A DNA stretch of 64,000 bases, taken from positions 32,001 through 96,000 of IMG/VR virus record IMGVR_UViG_3300047323_000304; one strand, 5' to 3'. A program made the translations under genes and the position numbers. Positions 2,803-48,888 of the stretch are shown in pieces (the stretch's first letter is position 1; every line of letters starts with the position of its first letter). Below the pieces are notes generated by a model. It was not told the DNA's origin. It was given only the letters and a program-made list of their open reading frames with translations, and ran no database searches. This DNA comes from a virus.

Positions 2803-4815
2803 ATGAATAAAATAGAGTTCATTAAAGATGAATTTCTTAATCCTACACCTATATTATATTTATGTAGGGGAATTATTGAAACATCATTAAAAAGCAGAGA
2901 TTTTAATACAACAGTAAATATAGTTAAATCTGATAAACAAAATGAAGTTTCTACACTTGCTTTTGATATTCCATTTTCAAAAGATAGAAAAATAACTATT
3001 GATGATTGTGATAAACTTGTAAAATTTGAAAATGATTATTATTTAATTAAGGAAATTGAAGTAGAAGATGGAAGTACCCCAAATATAAAAATATCATGTG
3101 AAAGTGAAAATACTGAACTTAAAGGAATTTACTGTGAAACAATCAATGCAATAGGCGTTTCACCTTATGATATGTATTTGGCTATTATGAATTCAGTTAG
3201 ACATCCAATTGATTTAACAAAAAATTATAAATGGGCAGGAACAGATGTTGTCAATAAATTTAGACATTTGCAATGCGAAGAAGAACAATCTGTATTTCAA
3301 AATTTCGTATCTTTAGCAGAAGTCTTTAATGGTTGGCTTGAATTTACTACTGATGAGAGTGGACAAAATTGGATTTTCTTGAGAACCCAAGAAATAGATG
3401 ATGGGAAATTTATTAAAAAAAATCTTGATATGAAAACATTAAATATAACATCTGATAGTAAAGAGATATTTACTCAAGTTGAGTTATTCGGAAAACAAGA
3501 TGAACTAACAGGTCAAGAAATAAATATAATGACAGTTAATCCAAATGGGAAAAGTTGTTTAGAAAATTATAGTTATTATCTTTCAAAAGGAATTCCAACA
3601 AGTAATATAGATAATGAACCTAAATATCAACAATTAAAAGTTATTAGAGACGAAAAGTACACAACACCTCAAGATTTATATGATATGGGAATTGAAGAAT
3701 TAGCAAAATGTTCAATTCCTAAAATAGATGCGTCTCTTACGCTTAGCGATTTATCTATACATATAGATAGTCCAATTATACCTCCAGTAGTTGGTCATAA
3801 GCTTTTATGTATTGACAAAGATATAGATTTTATTTTTACGTGTAAGATTATTGGTGTAGAAAGACCATATAATAATCCTGCTGATGTAAAAATTGAAATC
3901 TCAAATGTAAATAGGTATGATACAGCGTATCAAAACATAAATCATACTGTAGATAATGCAAATAAAGTAATAAGTACAGACCCAACTAATACAGATGGTC
4001 AAAATACAGGAGATTCTAAACCCTACATAAAAATGAGCGATTGTAAAGATGGTGATCACTGGAATGCAACTAAAAGATTTGCTGATACATATTCATTGGC
4101 AACTCAACAAAGTGACCTCATTTCTCTAAGAGTTGATGAACAAAATCAATCATTTGCGGAGCTTCAGGTCACAGCAAATATGATTTCAACTCATGTGGAA
4201 GATATAAGTGATACAAATCATAGAGTATATTCAGAAATACAACAAACAGCTAGAAATATAAAAGCTGTTGTAGTAGAAGATCAAGATAGTGGAAGTGTAG
4301 AATTAAATAAAGATAAATTTGTAGTTGCCTTTAATGGTAGTACAAATAGAAATGCAGTAATAGATAGAAATGTAGGTTTAATACTGGGAAATCCTGACAC
4401 TGGAACGTTTAGCCAAATAGAATATGGTGGTAAATTATCTTTAATGATGCAAGGAGAGAAGCATCCATATCATTGTTTAGTAGATGGAGGAGTTAGAAGT
4501 TTTGAATGTACAGATAGTGGATATACAACATTTTATATTAATCTGCCAAATAAGTTTTCAGGAATAGATGATTCAGAAATAACAGTTATTTCAAGTGTTA
4601 GAAAAGTTTATGATACAAATATTGATTCTACAAACAATATTTGTTTTTGGTTTGGTTGCTATGCCAGTTGTGTAAATGGGAGAATCCAAGTCGATGTGAT
4701 GAGTAAGTGGAGAACTGTACAATATGAAGATGACTCAAATGGAGATAGTTGGGTAAAGGATATTAACGGTGAAAAGAATGGACTGATTGATATTTCATAT
4801 GTTATAATAGCATAA
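2803..4815 (+). CDS. Phage tail endopeptidase/tail-spike (Tal-like) protein
   Basis: 670 aa, GGAGG RBS; KLVKFENDYYLIKEI, IFTQVELFGK, final SLTLSDLS...VGHKLLCIDKDIDF..CKIIGVERPYNNPADVKIEISN architecture typical of prophage tail proteins. Confidence 0.75.
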   Translation: MNKIEFIKDEFLNPTPILYLCRGIIETSLKSRDFNTTVNIVKSDKQNEVSTLAFDIPFSKDRKITIDDCDKLVKFENDYYLIKEIEVEDGSTPNIKISCESENTELKGIYCETINAIGVSPYDMYLAIMNSVRHPIDLTKNYKWAGTDVVNKFRHLQCEEEQSVFQNFVSLAEVFNGWLEFTTDESGQNWIFLRTQEIDDGKFIKKNLDMKTLNITSDSKEIFTQVELFGKQDELTGQEINIMTVNPNGKSCLENYSYYLSKGIPTSNIDNEPKYQQLKVIRDEKYTTPQDLYDMGIEELAKCSIPKIDASLTLSDLSIHIDSPIIPPVVGHKLLCIDKDIDFIFTCKIIGVERPYNNPADVKIEISNVNRYDTAYQNINHTVDNANKVISTDPTNTDGQNTGDSKPYIKMSDCKDGDHWNATKRFADTYSLATQQSDLISLRVDEQNQSFAELQVTANMISTHVEDISDTNHRVYSEIQQTARNIKAVVVEDQDSGSVELNKDKFVVAFNGSTNRNAVIDRNVGLILGNPDTGTFSQIEYGGKLSLMMQGEKHPYHCLVDGGVRSFECTDSGYTTFYINLPNKFSGIDDSEITVISSVRKVYDTNIDSTNNICFWFGCYASCVNGRIQVDVMSKWRTVQYEDDSNGDSWVKDINGEKNGLIDISYVIIA

Positions 4816-4834
4816 TTTAAAGGAGTGAAAACAA

Positions 4835-5092
4835 ATGGAAAATAAAAAAATGACTATATTTTATCGTTTAAGAAATTTAGAAATTAGTGATACTTGTACA
4901 GGAGTACAAAGTTTTAGATATTTTGGAGAAAATATTGAAGATTATGAAATGATATATGGACGTTTAGTTCTAGATTATGACGTTTTTATTTTAAGAAATA
5001 CACAAGATTTTTATCTAGAAAAAAATGAAAATGGAGAAGTACAATTAAAAATGAAACTTGAGTTTCAAGAATCCTTAAAAAAATATTTATAA
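4835..5092 (+). CDS. Small tail-associated protein
   Basis: GGAGTG RBS; directly follows the tail protein. Confidence 0.55.
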   Translation: MENKKMTIFYRLRNLEISDTCTGVQSFRYFGENIEDYEMIYGRLVLDYDVFILRNTQDFYLEKNENGEVQLKMKLEFQESLKKYL

Positions 5093-41594: not shown

Positions 41595-42359
41595 TTAATC
41601 AGTTATATCTATTTTTCTATGAATTAATGCTTGGTATACACTATCTGGTATTTCATTTTTATATTCTTCAGCTACTTCTACAAAAACATTTTCTCTAAAT
41701 TCTTTGTAAGCATTAAATGCTTCTATTTCAGTAGGAAAAGTACCTAAATAACATGATTTTTCATCACTACCTACTGCATTTGCAGAAAATGTTCCACTAT
41801 CCTTACGACTAGTTCCCAATAAGGTTTTCCCACGATAATTCTTTCTATTAATTAATAATAGATTTATTCTTTGAGGGATAAATACACAAATTTCAGGCGA
41901 ATATATTTTATTACCTTTATGTAGTATATCTTTATCAATCTCCATTCTTTCATTTCTAACTTCATAATAATTGTCTTTATACCATTGAGCATAGTTCTGA
42001 AAGTTTAACCATTCATCACATACTATACAACCTTCGTATGCACCTCTTTGTCTTTTAGGAATAAAACATCTTCCAAGCATATTATGCCAAGTTTTATATT
42101 CTATAGTATTTTTATTTGTTCCTAAACTAAGTTTATGTATACCCTCCCCTGTATAAGCGACACCATAAATTGTTTTATCGTATGGGTTCTTAATAACACC
42201 TTTTTTAAAGTTACTATATGTAGTTTGTTTAGTATGTTTGTGTTCATCTTGAAATTGAATGGTTATATTATTTGTATTTTTAAATTCTATTATTTTCATA
42301 ACTGTACCATGTTTATTCTTATTTTCTTCTCCAATATATTTACTATAATCTCTATTCAT
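41595..42359 (-). CDS. Free-standing HNH-type homing endonuclease (AP2-like C-terminus)
   Basis: WHNMLGRC...YEGCIVCDEWLNFQNYAQW...IDKDIL..GNKIYSPEICVFIP..IN; YLGTFPTEIEAFNAY. Confidence 0.85.
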   Translation of the reverse strand: MNRDYSKYIGEENKNKHGTVMKIIEFKNTNNITIQFQDEHKHTKQTTYSNFKKGVIKNPYDKTIYGVAYTGEGIHKLSLGTNKNTIEYKTWHNMLGRCFIPKRQRGAYEGCIVCDEWLNFQNYAQWYKDNYYEVRNERMEIDKDILHKGNKIYSPEICVFIPQRINLLLINRKNYRGKTLLGTSRKDSGTFSANAVGSDEKSCYLGTFPTEIEAFNAYKEFRENVFVEVAEEYKNEIPDSVYQALIHRKIDITD

Positions 42360-42506: not shown

Positions 42507-45304
42507 TTATTTTGTTAATTCTATAATATACTGATTGCTTGAACCATACATAGGATTATCACATTTTTTATCAAGCTCAAACTTCCCACATATTATTTTA
42601 TCAATATATTTAGTTGCTTCAAAATCTTTAATATCATCATATTCATAGCCAGTCCAAACATAAATACTGCAATCTGGAATTTCATTTCTTACACGTTTAA
42701 CAATATCTAATAATTCGTTTTTGTTATATGGAGCAAATGGTTCTCCTCCAAGAAGGGATAACGCTTTTCTTTCTTTACAAAGATTAACAATTACATCAAT
42801 ATCTAATTTAAAATTATTATCATGTTCCCATAAAGATTCATTATGGCACATATAACATTTATGAGGGCAACCTTTAAACCATGCAGAAACTCTTAATCCA
42901 TCACCATTTAGTATTTCAAAATCATGAATTCCTTCTGAAATCTCTCTACCATAATGTACTTCTCTTTGTTCATCTTCTTGTTTTTTACCATCATTTACTC
43001 TAGTATCTCCATCTATTTCATAATAAGAAAGATAACCACAGACACGATCCACTACTATTAATTTTGTACTACCACATTTATCACAATGAGGATTTGATTT
43101 GTCATATTCTATAACACTTCTGCCACATTCTTTGCATGTTACTGAGTCAAAATTAACTCCTTCATATAATCCCATTTTCATAGCTTGTCTTGTTACTTGT
43201 GATATTGCTTTTAAATTATGGTTAATTGGATATTCACTATAAAAAATATGTCCAGCATTACTTAAATCAAACATTGGTTTTTCAATTCTCATCTTTTCAA
43301 ATGGATCAACTTTAGCAGTAACATTTACATGAAAACTATTCATTATGTATTTTTTATCTGTGACTCCTTTTATAATTCCAAAATGTTCAAACTCTTTATT
43401 TCTACAAGTCTCGGCATAACCTTCTATTGGACTACCATAGATTGCAAACATTAATCCATATTCTTTTATAGCCTCATCTTTCCATTTATTTAGATGCTCT
43501 AAGACTTCTATCGCAAATGAATTATCTTCGTGTATTTCTTTTCCTGTCATTAATAAACTAACTTCATTTAACCCTAGATAACCATATGACCATGTAAAAG
43601 TCTTAATTACTTCTTCTATTGTATCAGTTGGTTTTAATCTCATATGACAACCACCATCACAAAAGAATAATGGATTTGAACTTGCTTCTACATTTTTCAT
43701 TCTGTCAAATTGCCATAAATGACCTTCAGTTGCTAAGTCAAAATATTCTTTTAAAGTTTTAAAATATGCTTCTTTATCTTTTGTGTGTCTGTATAATAAT
43801 GCTGGTCTTACTGTATTAATTGTTATTGCTCCACAGTTTGCACGACCATTAAAAACTGGTTCTCCTTTTTCATTAAACCATACTGACAAATACGCTCTAC
43901 ACATGTTCTCTAATATTACTATTAGCATTGACTATATCATCTCTCCGACTCACCACGTCATCAACAAGCCCTTCGCTTGGAATTGGTGCTTATCTCCAAT
44001 CCTACTCTGCTACACTCATCACAGATAGTCGATACACATTTATCTATATTACTATAGAATTTAGCACGGTCTCAGCTTTAATATGTTATTAAAGTCCTAA
44101 CCGTTAGCATTACAATTAAGTAACACACCCTATAAGCTAGGTTCAAAGGGTTTTACATGGGCTAGTAGTTTTACAGACCCATTGGTGCTAAGGCATAACC
44201 ATACGTTTTCCATATGTATCCACAATAACCTTCATCTAATGAAAGCATATCTGGATATGCACGTTTTGCTCTACATTCAATAGCTAAGTCATATAAATCT
44301 TCATTTATTCCACCTTCACCATGAATTTCATCTCTATAAAAGAAAACTATCTTAGGAAATATTGCAGTTTGTTTTTTCTTTCCACAACCTTTTAATCTAG
44401 TTTCTAAAATAATTCTAGTTACAAATCTTGCCCAAAAGGTTGTTCTATTTCCTAATGCTATTGTTTCAAAAGGTACTTGCATATTAGAATTAGAAATCGA
44501 GTTTAATCTAGTTTCAATACCATTCCATCTTTTTCTAAATGCTCTTTCAACAAATTTCATTGCCATATCTTTTATCTTTTCTTCTGAAATATCCTCATCT
44601 TTTAGTTGATTTGTATAATATGTAATTGATTTATCATAAGCATTTTCTAAAGCCCCTTCTAATACATGATCAATTTCATTGATAGTAAATCCCCCATATT
44701 CTTGTGAACTAGCTTCTAATAGTACATCTGATAATACGCCTAAATAAGCTTCAATACTTTCTGCATCATCATATTCTAATCCATTGATAACAGGGTTGTT
44801 ATCAATAACAGTTTTCATATCAAATAGGCAACAATTTATTCCTCCAAAATATCTATCAGAAACATCATGGAACTTTATTTTATTATCTTTATGTGCATCT
44901 GCTAACTTCTTTGGTAATATACGATTTAACATTTCACTTGTTATATATGTATCTAAAGTTAGTCCTTTTTTAGTAGATACTAATTGTGAATTTTTATTAG
45001 CATTTTCCCTACTAACAGTTGTTAATATTTTATCTGTTTCATGTCTAAGTTCTGTATTTCTTTTATATTCTTGTACACATCTATAATCTTCATAAGATAT
45101 AGCAATATCTTTAAATCCATATTCAATTAATGAATTAACTACTAGTTTTTCAATTTCAGATACTGTTAGTTCTTTATTAATATGTTGTATATCCTCAGCT
45201 ATCATTGTTGCAACTGATTTCTTGCCTCCAGCCTTTACTATTGCACTTTCAATTCTTTTAATGTCAAAATCTTGTTTAACACCTGTTCTTTTTATTACAT
45301 ACAT
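42507..45304 (-). CDS. nrdD: Anaerobic ribonucleoside-triphosphate reductase NrdD (spliced: 45304-44177 + 43901-42507) fused in frame to NrdG-like radical-SAM activase; 840 aa predicted
   Basis: ATP cone (YVIKRTG..FDI.RI..AI); spliced PMG|CR; glycyl motif RVCGYL; then NGDGLRV..WFKGCPHKCYMCHN...LSLLGGEPF in the same frame. Confidence 0.9.
43902..44176 (-). ncRNA. ORF-less group I intron (275 nt) in nrdD
   Basis: 5' exon ends in U, intron ends in G; P1 AUGGGU/GCCCAU with U.G at splice site; P7 GACUAU (44030-44025) / GAUAUAGUC (43938-43930); removal restores M-G-C-R. Confidence 0.92.
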
Positions 45305-47273: not shown

Positions 47274-47861
47274 CTATTTTACCTCATTTACTATGTACCC
47301 ACGTATCTTTTTAACTCCATAAGAATTTGCTCGTTTCTTCCACTGTTCTCTAGTCTCACCATCTAGTCTGGTAACATATAAATCTATGTGGTTAGAATTA
47401 TTAAAATTATTTCCACCTTTATCTGAAACAATCCTTAAACCATAATCTTTTTCTAAAAATATTTTAGTTCCTAATGGTAATACATTATTTGCAATGACTC
47501 CTCTTTCTAAAGGTTTTCCCTTACAATCTACATTTCCATGTATACTGTTTTCTTCTTCAAGTCCTGTATAAAAACTGACTGTAAACTCTTGCCATTGTGG
47601 TTCATTTATCTTTTGTTCTTCTAACTCTTTCTGATTTCTCAGTCGTTCTTTTTCAGTTTTCTTTTTATCTAGTTCCAATTTGTCTTTTTCAAACTGTTCT
47701 TGTATTGGATTGATTAATAATCCAAATCTATCTTTATGTACCATTCCCTCTGTATCTTTTACAACTACTTGCGTTGTCTGGAACGGTGATATGTTGCTTT
47801 CTGTTGGAAATGTGAAAAGTAAAGTTATAGAAAGCATACATACAATCCTGTTCTTCAACAT
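47274..47861 (-). CDS. 3D-domain (MltA-like) exported protein
   Basis: N-terminal hydrophobic anchor; FTVSFYT...GVIANNVLPLGTKI...VSDKGG...HIDLYV. Confidence 0.8.
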   Translation of the reverse strand: MLKNRIVCMLSITLLFTFPTESNISPFQTTQVVVKDTEGMVHKDRFGLLINPIQEQFEKDKLELDKKKTEKERLRNQKELEEQKINEPQWQEFTVSFYTGLEEENSIHGNVDCKGKPLERGVIANNVLPLGTKIFLEKDYGLRIVSDKGGNNFNNSNHIDLYVTRLDGETREQWKKRANSYGVKKIRGYIVNEVK

Positions 47862-47889: not shown

Positions 47890-48783
47890 TTATTGTTTAA
47901 CATTCATTAATTCAGTAATTTTTTGGGTTTCATTTGCTATCTCAACTATATTCGCAGTTTGTTCTTGAATGGCTGAAGATATTTGTTCCATGCCTGCTGA
48001 TGTTTCACTCATGCTAATATTAATTTCTTCTATATTAGCAATTCTAAATATACTACTTTGTTTTAATTTTGCACTGTCCTCTTTTCCGATTTCAGTTTTA
48101 GTTAAAATTATCCTTGCTTTATCTTGTAACTCTTTTATAATTTGACTTATTGTTACGCTGGAATCTTTAACTCCTTCTGCCAACTTCCTTATTTCACTAG
48201 CAACTACTGCAAAACCTTTACCAGCTTCGCCAGCTCTAGCACTTTCTATACTTGCATTTAGTGATAATAGATTAGTTTGGTCTGCAATTTCTTTAATTGT
48301 TTCTGTTATTTTAGAAATGTCTTGCATTTTCTCATATAAATCATTTGCATTATTATAAATATTTGTGTTCTCTTCATGAAATCTATCCATAATTCCACCA
48401 TTATCTTTAGCACCTTTATATGCACTATTAACTCTTTCGGCAATGCTAAAAAGTGTTGCATTGATTTCTTCAACTGTAGCAGTAAATTCTTCTGATACAC
48501 TCGCAGATGATGTAATAGCATTACTAATTGATTCCATTTCTTTTAGTAATTTTGAATTGGACTTTTCTGCTGACTTCTTATAATCTTTAAATGATTTATC
48601 GTTAACTTCTAGTTCTGTATGTAGTTCTTTATTTTGTGATTCTAATTTTTTAATTTCATTATCTTTTTCAGATTTTAAGGCTTCTAGTTTCTCATTCATT
48701 TCTTTTTCTAAAGTTTCTCTTAATTCTTGTAACCCTTTTTCGTTTTTAAATAATTTTTTCATATTAATACACACTCCATTCAT
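47890..48783 (-). CDS. Soluble methyl-accepting chemotaxis protein (signalling domain only)
   Basis: [38 protein letters not shown] hairpin-tip signature; no TM segment. Confidence 0.93.
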
Positions 48784-48888
48784 TTAATTTATTTTTGTTG
48801 GCTTTCATTACTGTGTCAACTCTAAATTGTCAGGATTAATTGCGTACTATGTTTAGTTTTATGTTTTCTATTTTTTTAGAATTGAGAA

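Follow-up and report, generated by a model that had tools for sequence, protein, structure and literature searches.

Analysis of the window, that is, the whole 64,000-nucleotide stretch of DNA formed by bases 32001–96000 of a 193,897-bp IMG/VR record, revealed that a phage gene on its minus strand encodes a bona fide MCP signalling domain in the form of a soluble, sensor-less protein of 290 aa (Table 1). Chemoreceptor arrays are among the best-understood bacterial signalling machines, and we know of no virus that targets them. What is new here is a soluble sensor-less MCP that is restricted to phages and possesses its own N-terminal motif and a shortened C-terminal arm. The protein is stripped to the parts facing the kinase and the adaptation enzymes and is kept under selection by a clade of large phages, by which viral control of host swimming becomes directly testable with one small gene.

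The preliminary description assigned the receptor to a 297-aa ORF (47890..48783, minus strand). This ORF is indeed present, while its start had to be revised. A GGAG sequence precedes the second in-frame ATG, no similar purine run was found before the first one (48783), every homologue has its start at the second Met, and a length of 290 aa is also given by the public gene call. The position of GGAG, the starts of the homologues and the choice of the gene callers together indicate that the product is 290 aa long and starts at 48762 rather than at 48783. A match to the sigma-70-like promoter consensus is located upstream of the gene; however, the promoter/terminator scan found no more promoter-type sites in the region than in shuffles. 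The same scan detected no terminator between the stop codon of the receptor and the following 3D-domain gene. The G+C content and GC3 of the receptor gene are those of the neighbouring phage genes.

Table 1. Positions of the receptor gene, its parts and adjoining features in the window
Feature	Position	Strand	Remarks
Sensor-less soluble MCP gene, 290 aa	47890..48762	(-)	Stop codon 47890-47892; start is the second in-frame ATG
Ribosome-binding site GGAG	48774..48777	(-)	11 nt 5′ of the ATG at 48762
Sigma-70-like promoter consensus match	48791..48819	(-)	TTGACA, 17 nt, AAAAAT; consensus match only
Family-specific N-terminal motif, residues 1-14	48721..48762	(-)	F5, N7, K9 invariant; low pLDDT
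Charged helical extension, residues 15-67	48562..48720	(-)	No partner on C-terminal arm
Two overlapping methylation-consensus sites, residues 88-102	48457..48501	(-)	S-V-S-E-E-F-T-A, A-T-V-E-E-I-N-A
Hairpin tip, CheA/CheW-binding and trimer-forming region, residues 141-217	48112..48342	(-)	U-turn E179
Two C-arm methylation-consensus sites, residues 256-270	47953..47997	(-)	A-G-M-E-Q-I-S-S, S-A-I-Q-E-Q-T-A
3D-domain protein, 195 aa, exported	47274..47861	(-)	Sps/Rpf-like muralytic type; starts 28 nt past the MCP stop

The Pfam profile MCPsignal (PF00015) matched residues 130–285 of the 290-aa product (137–292 of the 297-aa ORF) with an E value of 6.6e-30 and 104.6 bits against a cut-off of 34.6, and the match extended over positions 16–171 of the 172 in the profile. 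No Pfam domain besides MCPsignal was found in the receptor, ligand-binding domain and HAMP included, and no transmembrane segment could be detected (the maximum Kyte–Doolittle mean over 19 residues is 0.57). Pro, Trp and Cys are all missing from the protein, and its layout is not that of the classical transmembrane chemoreceptors (sensor, TM2, HAMP, signalling domain). These data bear out the preliminary description of a soluble phage chemoreceptor without transmembrane or sensory parts and with an intact tip. The receptor was also matched at E 1e-32 by PHROG 8572, a family of phage proteins without an assigned function.

The tip is the best-conserved part of the receptor, having 32 positions that are at least 95% conserved, and its motif Q-T-N-L-L-x-L-N-A-x-I-E-x-A-R-A-G-E-x-G-x-G-F-x-V-V-A-x-E is intact. 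All tip positions that are invariant in a set of 71 cellular MCPs, which is biased to sequences sharing words with the query, were retained in the 46 phage members. Phage-specific substitutions in the tip, as part of a dominant-negative design, were also considered and the idea was dropped, since Ser167, Ser171 and Ser174 are common in the nearest cellular MCPs, too. By phmmer, residues 70–268 aligned with residues 282–480 of E. coli Tsr without a single gap over 199 residues, which placed E179 on Tsr E391, and the Tsr-type models of NCBIfam aligned residues 30–268 to their positions 242–480, likewise gapless. The AlphaFold2 model, computed from a 23-sequence alignment, is all-helical with one continuous helical assignment (hairpin) and a pLDDT of 90.6. 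The top 16 PDB matches of this model in Foldseek were all cytoplasmic domains of chemoreceptors, 2CH7, 3ZX6, 3G6B and 1QU7 each being matched at a probability of 1.00.

The two arms of the hairpin differ in length, the C-terminal one having 111 and the N-terminal one 178 residues, thus a four-helix bundle would cover approximately residues 68–290 and leave residues 1–67 unpaired. A dimer is expected to form the four-helix bundle over about this part. Residues 1–67 are helical and rich in Glu and Lys (17 K/R and 17 D/E), in agreement with the charged coiled coil outside the tip that had been noted previously; residues 15–67, with an omega of 0.34 the most variable part of the receptor, presumably pair in the dimer as a two-stranded coiled coil. 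Among the nearest cellular receptors, the C-terminal arms consist of ~150–155 (44H type) or 123–128 residues (36H type). The alignments required no net gaps against cellular matches with arms of 123–128 residues, while heptad-size gaps were needed against the 44H-type receptors. Since only the 36H type could be aligned free of net gaps, the phage receptor appears to have a 36H-like register with a C-terminus trimmed by about two heptads, although the 36H class has 18 heptads per arm and the C-terminal arm of the phage protein is only 111 residues long in spite of the gap-free Tsr-type alignments.

Besides the features listed in the preliminary description, the receptor carries four methylation-consensus sites and a conserved N-terminal motif. 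The consensus [ASTG]-x-x-[EQ]-[EQ]-x-x-[ASTG] predicted methylation sites starting at residues 88, 95, 256 and 263. In the N-terminal arm, conservation reaches at least 95% at E91, E92, A95, T96 and E99, of which E92 and E99 correspond to E304 and Q311 of Tsr (its methylation sites 2 and 3); Q266 in the C-terminal arm is invariant. On either arm, the sites are found at distances of 80 and 87 residues from the tip, and these equal distances indicate that the methylation sites of the N- and C-terminal arms face each other. A tether for CheR or CheB was not found: the protein ends in E-L-M-N-V-K-Q, with no pentapeptide of the N-W-E-T-F type and no Trp. The F-K-N-x-K motif at the N-terminus was found in none of the 71 cellular MCP matches (0/71), and its F5, N7 and K9 residues may constitute a docking peptide. 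Given four conserved consensus sites per monomer in a cytoplasmic protein that could be abundant from a phage promoter, the receptor could also be seen as a sink for adaptation enzymes, in which the Glu/Gln pairs of the bundle would occupy host CheR, CheB or CheD so that the host receptors lose adaptation, the tip being of minor importance. This appears very unlikely, as a pure sink would not need the tip, which is the best-conserved region, and the C-terminal tethering pentapeptide is missing.

The distribution of the family was surveyed in a search of 5.8 billion clustered proteins, which yielded ~46 clusters of 287–292 aa with 46–72% identity. Their sources were metagenomic and viral contigs only, several of them 100–283 kb in size; none of the 49 family clusters listed had an NCBI source, all being metagenomic, and one family member recurred in 92 blocks of the protein collection. 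Next in score were three paralogue clusters of ~425 aa with 37–41% identity, followed by cellular receptors matching only around the tip. Among the matches listed from a pattern scan of 185,579 species genomes, the best had 33–44% identity, confined to part of the length and mostly from Bacillota; the plasmid and isolate-phage collections contained no close relative of the receptor. No cellular protein among the matches listed exceeded ~45% identity beyond part of the length, and a search for longer fused relatives found none at E 1e-20, a negative result of little weight.

In an ML tree based on 210 columns around the tip and obtained by a quick search rather than a full one, the 290-aa and 425-aa forms were joined in one clade (SH-aLRT 100), the stem of which has a length of 1.28 changes per site; the tree gave this clade no defined sister group. 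A TlpD-like ancestry was considered because several long-coverage cellular matches were soluble MCP-CZB proteins, and it was rejected, as the 425-aa paralogues are without the CZB motif and the tree did not supply a sister group. The 425-aa paralogues keep a version of the N-terminal F-K-N motif and have a C-terminal domain of ~130 aa with a beta-beta-alpha-beta-alpha-beta-alpha-beta order (STAS-like). For this domain nothing was found in Pfam or NCBIfam, ESM Atlas gave no usable match, and the AlphaFold2 model, made with three sequences, was poor (pLDDT 54). Paralogues of 422–428 aa occur in related phages (L117:6001-7287 in the 107,893-bp contig from Logan SRR13961593; P0047-P0049), where an alpha-amylase-family gene and a KAS III-like gene are their neighbours. 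One paralogue-bearing phage also has a 290-aa member (P0034).

Ten distinct copies of the gene were available from viral contigs, all intact and of near-constant length, and the receptor family is under purifying selection. Nei–Gojobori dN/dS was 0.19–0.26 in the closest pairs, and the pooled values were 0.15 for residues 218–247, 0.16 for the tip, 0.20 for the methylation helices (residues 68–110 and 248–290) and 0.34–0.38 for residues 1–67, all regional values being under 0.4, with the reservation that the pairs are non-independent and the AT-rich composition inflates the uncertainty of dS. The positions conserved in at least 95% of the members form three islands: the tip, the methylation helices (A87, E91, E92, A95, T96 and E99 with Q266 and E274) and F5/N7/K9 at the N-terminus. 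A recent, decaying capture from a host, which the preliminary description had set against its own reading, is refuted by the dN/dS of ~0.2 and by the ten intact copies, and no close cellular homologue that could have been its source was found among the matches listed. The gene is truncated compared with cellular receptors and one close relative of the phage is without it, as would be expected from a functionless passenger derived from a host receptor fragment; nevertheless, considering also the neighbour-like GC3, the monophyletic long-stem clade and the cellular identities that, among the matches listed, reach only ~45% over part of the length, such a passenger is extremely improbable.

Several cellular chemoreceptors resemble the phage protein, which belongs with the Tm14/YfmS/McpS type by being soluble, ~210–300 aa in size and composed of the signalling domain only, a likeness of type rather than of proven descent, since the tree supplied no sister group. 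Tm14 (TM0014, PDB 3G67/3G6B) is likewise a soluble helical hairpin consisting essentially of the signalling domain, and it gave the best superposition on the model (3g6b, TMt 0.81, rmsd 3.0 Å, 209 columns) and a phmmer E value of 2e-12. It differs in being a cellular protein that works with the che genes of its own organism, shows 21–22% identity, and has neither the N-terminal motif of the phage family nor the 67-residue unpaired N-terminal helix. YfmS of B. subtilis is close in size (286 vs 290 aa), originates from Bacillota, has no transmembrane segment and is essentially a signalling domain only, and the integrative YfmS–CheW model 9A72 was matched by Foldseek with 31% identity over 177 columns; in contrast to the phage receptor it is encoded by a chromosomal gene of a motile bacterium, and its own function is poorly defined. 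It is called “another soluble chemoreceptor” in PMC7542364.

McpS of P. aeruginosa (PA1930) is also short and soluble, but cellular and proteobacterial. Its overexpression was reportedly found by Bardy and Maddock in 2005 to disturb chemotaxis, and this effect is the behaviour we propose for the phage receptor. A table entry in PMC9864684 states that McpS “modulates chemotaxis and chemoreceptor clustering”. The E. coli receptors Tsr and Tar (36H; PDB 1QU7, 3ZX6, 6S1K and 8C5V) are transmembrane proteins with a sensor, HAMP and a C-terminal pentapeptide, unlike the phage receptor, the C-terminal arm of which is ~15 residues (2 heptads) shorter than that of Tsr. Soluble fragments of Tsr were reported by Ames and Parkinson in 1994 to lock signalling in E. 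coli. Cytoplasmic receptors and receptor fragments form sandwiched, double-baseplate cytoplasmic arrays with CheA and CheW (PMC3964821).

No match to the Pfam families of CheW, receiver domains, CheR or GGDEF was found in the 194-kb record, which is ~78% complete, and these searches brought up no other chemotaxis or motility genes. A flagellin-N match (E 4e-4, below the cut-off) inside the tape measure protein was discarded as coiled-coil noise. The lack of CheW, receiver, CheR and GGDEF matches implies that the receptor must use host partners if it acts with any Che proteins. On balance, we lean towards the view that the receptor docks by its tip on host CheW/CheA as an input-less element and jams or clamps signalling. 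It would be produced during infection from the arm of replication genes, the timing being deduced from this position, and its tip would bind host CheW and CheA, as its conservation suggests, either by intercalation into the polar arrays or in separate cytoplasmic complexes. Having no input domain, the receptor would act as a constitutive element. Jamming would mean that CheW and CheA are titrated away from the sensing receptors, clamping that the kinase is held at a fixed level; in both cases infected cells would no longer track their own gradients, and the bias of their flagella would be set anew. A pure decoy would need neither the methylation helices nor the N-terminal motif, and the conservation of both hints at more than titration. 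Co-assembly with the receptors of a Bacillota host in one lattice is not guaranteed, judging from the 36H-like register and the C-terminal arm of 111 residues as against the mostly 150–155 of the nearest Bacillota receptors. If docking and jamming occur as proposed, the phage gene would yield a dominant chemotaxis modulator of natural origin for Bacillota, shed light on the repeated uptake of chemoreceptor genes by large phages, and offer an entry to how infection changes bacterial movement in sediments, peat and guts.

It is also possible, if rather unlikely, that the phage mini-receptors build cytoplasmic arrays of their own with host CheA and CheW, clamp the phosphorylation of CheY and so control flagellar rotation. 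Head-to-head contacts, in place of which the membrane normally serves, might then be made by the F-K-N-x-K motif and the unpaired coils at the N-terminus, and the phage might benefit by stopping flagellum-dependent superinfection, holding the cell in a favourable place or dispersing it before lysis. Should such arrays exist, they would represent a new class of viral takeover of host behaviour.

Full-length receptors are carried by other large phages, namely by IMG/VR contigs of 190–394 kb (loci L020-L035) and by two cultured jumbo phages. These receptors have dCache, sCache or protoglobin sensors, usually two transmembrane helices with HAMP, and mostly C-terminal arms of 140–156 residues, and look like acquisitions separate from the stripped family. 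Their presence in several large phages indicates that such phages acquire receptors repeatedly. The receptor of Vibrio phage vB_VmeM-Yong XC31 (QAX96201.1; L134:1412-3244, MK308674.1 207397-209229) comprises two transmembrane helices, dCache_1, HAMP and MCPsignal, while that of phage MaAM05 (WMU93215.1; L135:1622-3148, MW495066.1 19362-20888) is a soluble, HemAT-like protein of protoglobin and MCPsignal; both are annotated merely as “hypothetical protein”. Functional studies of chemoreceptors encoded by phages were not found in a full-text literature search, the sole match of which was a passing chemoreceptor annotation in Nitrosospira phages (bioRxiv 10.64898/2026.05.02.722434). With mentions at the level of annotation only, the earlier remark that no characterised example is known holds for the literature searched.

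The sensors of these large-phage receptors argue that phages supply sensing as well, which raises the question whether the stripped protein itself could be a working receptor that senses a cytoplasmic cue (a metabolite, pH, redox or a phage protein), adapts by methylation and guides the infected host (virocell taxis). Such a cue would be received either by the bundle or by the N-terminal motif together with the coil. The methylation-consensus sites are conserved and omega is ~0.2 in the two helices bearing them, the invariance of the N-terminal motif is suggestive of a binding partner, and the globular C-terminal domain of the 425-aa paralogues could be an input. A precedent may be McpB of B. 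subtilis, which, according to PMC7542364, senses ethanol via its cytoplasmic signalling domain. However, the phage receptor has no recognisable ligand-binding domain, its residues 15–67 are the least conserved ones and a consistently linked partner gene is missing, thus we consider a sensing function unlikely.

The record that contains the window is a real phage with a CheckV completeness of ~78%. Genes for the large terminase subunit, the portal (E 2e-88), virion structural proteins and a tape measure protein of 1875 aa are located just upstream of the window, the terminase and the portal being identified with PHROGs, while the Pfam Terminase_6N and HK97 capsid models gave no match. In the window itself tail, tail-fibre and tailspike genes were found together with those of DNA polymerase (E 1e-196), both topoisomerase II subunits and the anaerobic ribonucleotide reductase. 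The strand bias flips near 33–34 kb, separating a plus arm of tail genes from a minus arm of replication and nucleotide metabolism. The receptor gene lies on the minus arm with DNA polymerase, topoisomerase II and NrdD, which supports its previous placement among early genes as regards the position, though “early” is deduced from gene position only. The G+C content of the window is 26–27%. From this low G+C, the anaerobic ribonucleotide reductase, the Bacillota-type nearest receptors and the Sps-type 3D protein, the host is probably an anaerobic, clostridial member of Bacillota.

In the 195-aa protein encoded next to the receptor, a hydrophobic leader is found at the N-terminus, and a coiled coil and a 3D domain are also present; the protein matches weakly the stationary-phase-survival (Sps) muralytic family of Bacillota. 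In most relatives its gene immediately follows that of the receptor. The order topoisomerase II B, topoisomerase II A, a 101-aa protein, small ORFs, the receptor and the 3D-domain gene was observed in at least six related phages, while in the more distant relatives reached through the topoisomerase no receptor was found near it. A close relative (L125:5283-6252 and L126, from IMGVR_UViG_3300028676_000016 and 3300030838_000014, respectively) retains the flanking 101-aa and 3D-domain genes, the latter with 79% protein and 84% DNA identity, and in the place of the receptor it has three unrelated small ORFs, one of them lipoprotein-like, with no receptor remnant in the slot. The receptor gene is thus accessory, as a close relative exists without it, and its slot looks like a swappable accessory position. 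Since the 3D-domain gene is kept in the relative lacking the receptor, it is not an obligate partner of it.

The location among replication and accessory genes and beside an exported muralytic-type protein, along with the marked divergence from cellular receptors indicated by the stem of the clade and by the family-specific N-terminal motif, could also reflect a coiled coil repurposed outside flagellar chemotaxis, either in a Che-like pathway (pili, biofilm, development) or as a scaffold or an anti-defence factor with some other host or phage protein as its target. This is quite unlikely, because all universal tip residues are kept, which is hard to explain without partners of the CheA/CheW type; moreover, the defence-system libraries, PADLOC included, gave no match to the receptor and no structural-module context was seen. 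If the receptor does not bind CheA or CheW, its fully conserved tip must serve another role, which would be equally informative.

Some further observations concern the genes of the minus arm. NrdD is split in the window into two parts at 42507-43928 (-) and 44171-45304 (-), ~240 nt apart, and it is split in the related contig L017, too, while in L010 it is a single ORF of 709 aa; such an arrangement points to a split gene or to an element lying in between. In one relative (L003:2819-6865), both topoisomerase II subunits form a single fused ORF of 1348 aa. In L017, two copies of a 254-aa protein (1442-2206 and 4223-5002), homologous to the product of 41595-42359 (-) in the window, flank topoisomerase II B, one of them lying between B and A, and these copies may represent a mobile element.
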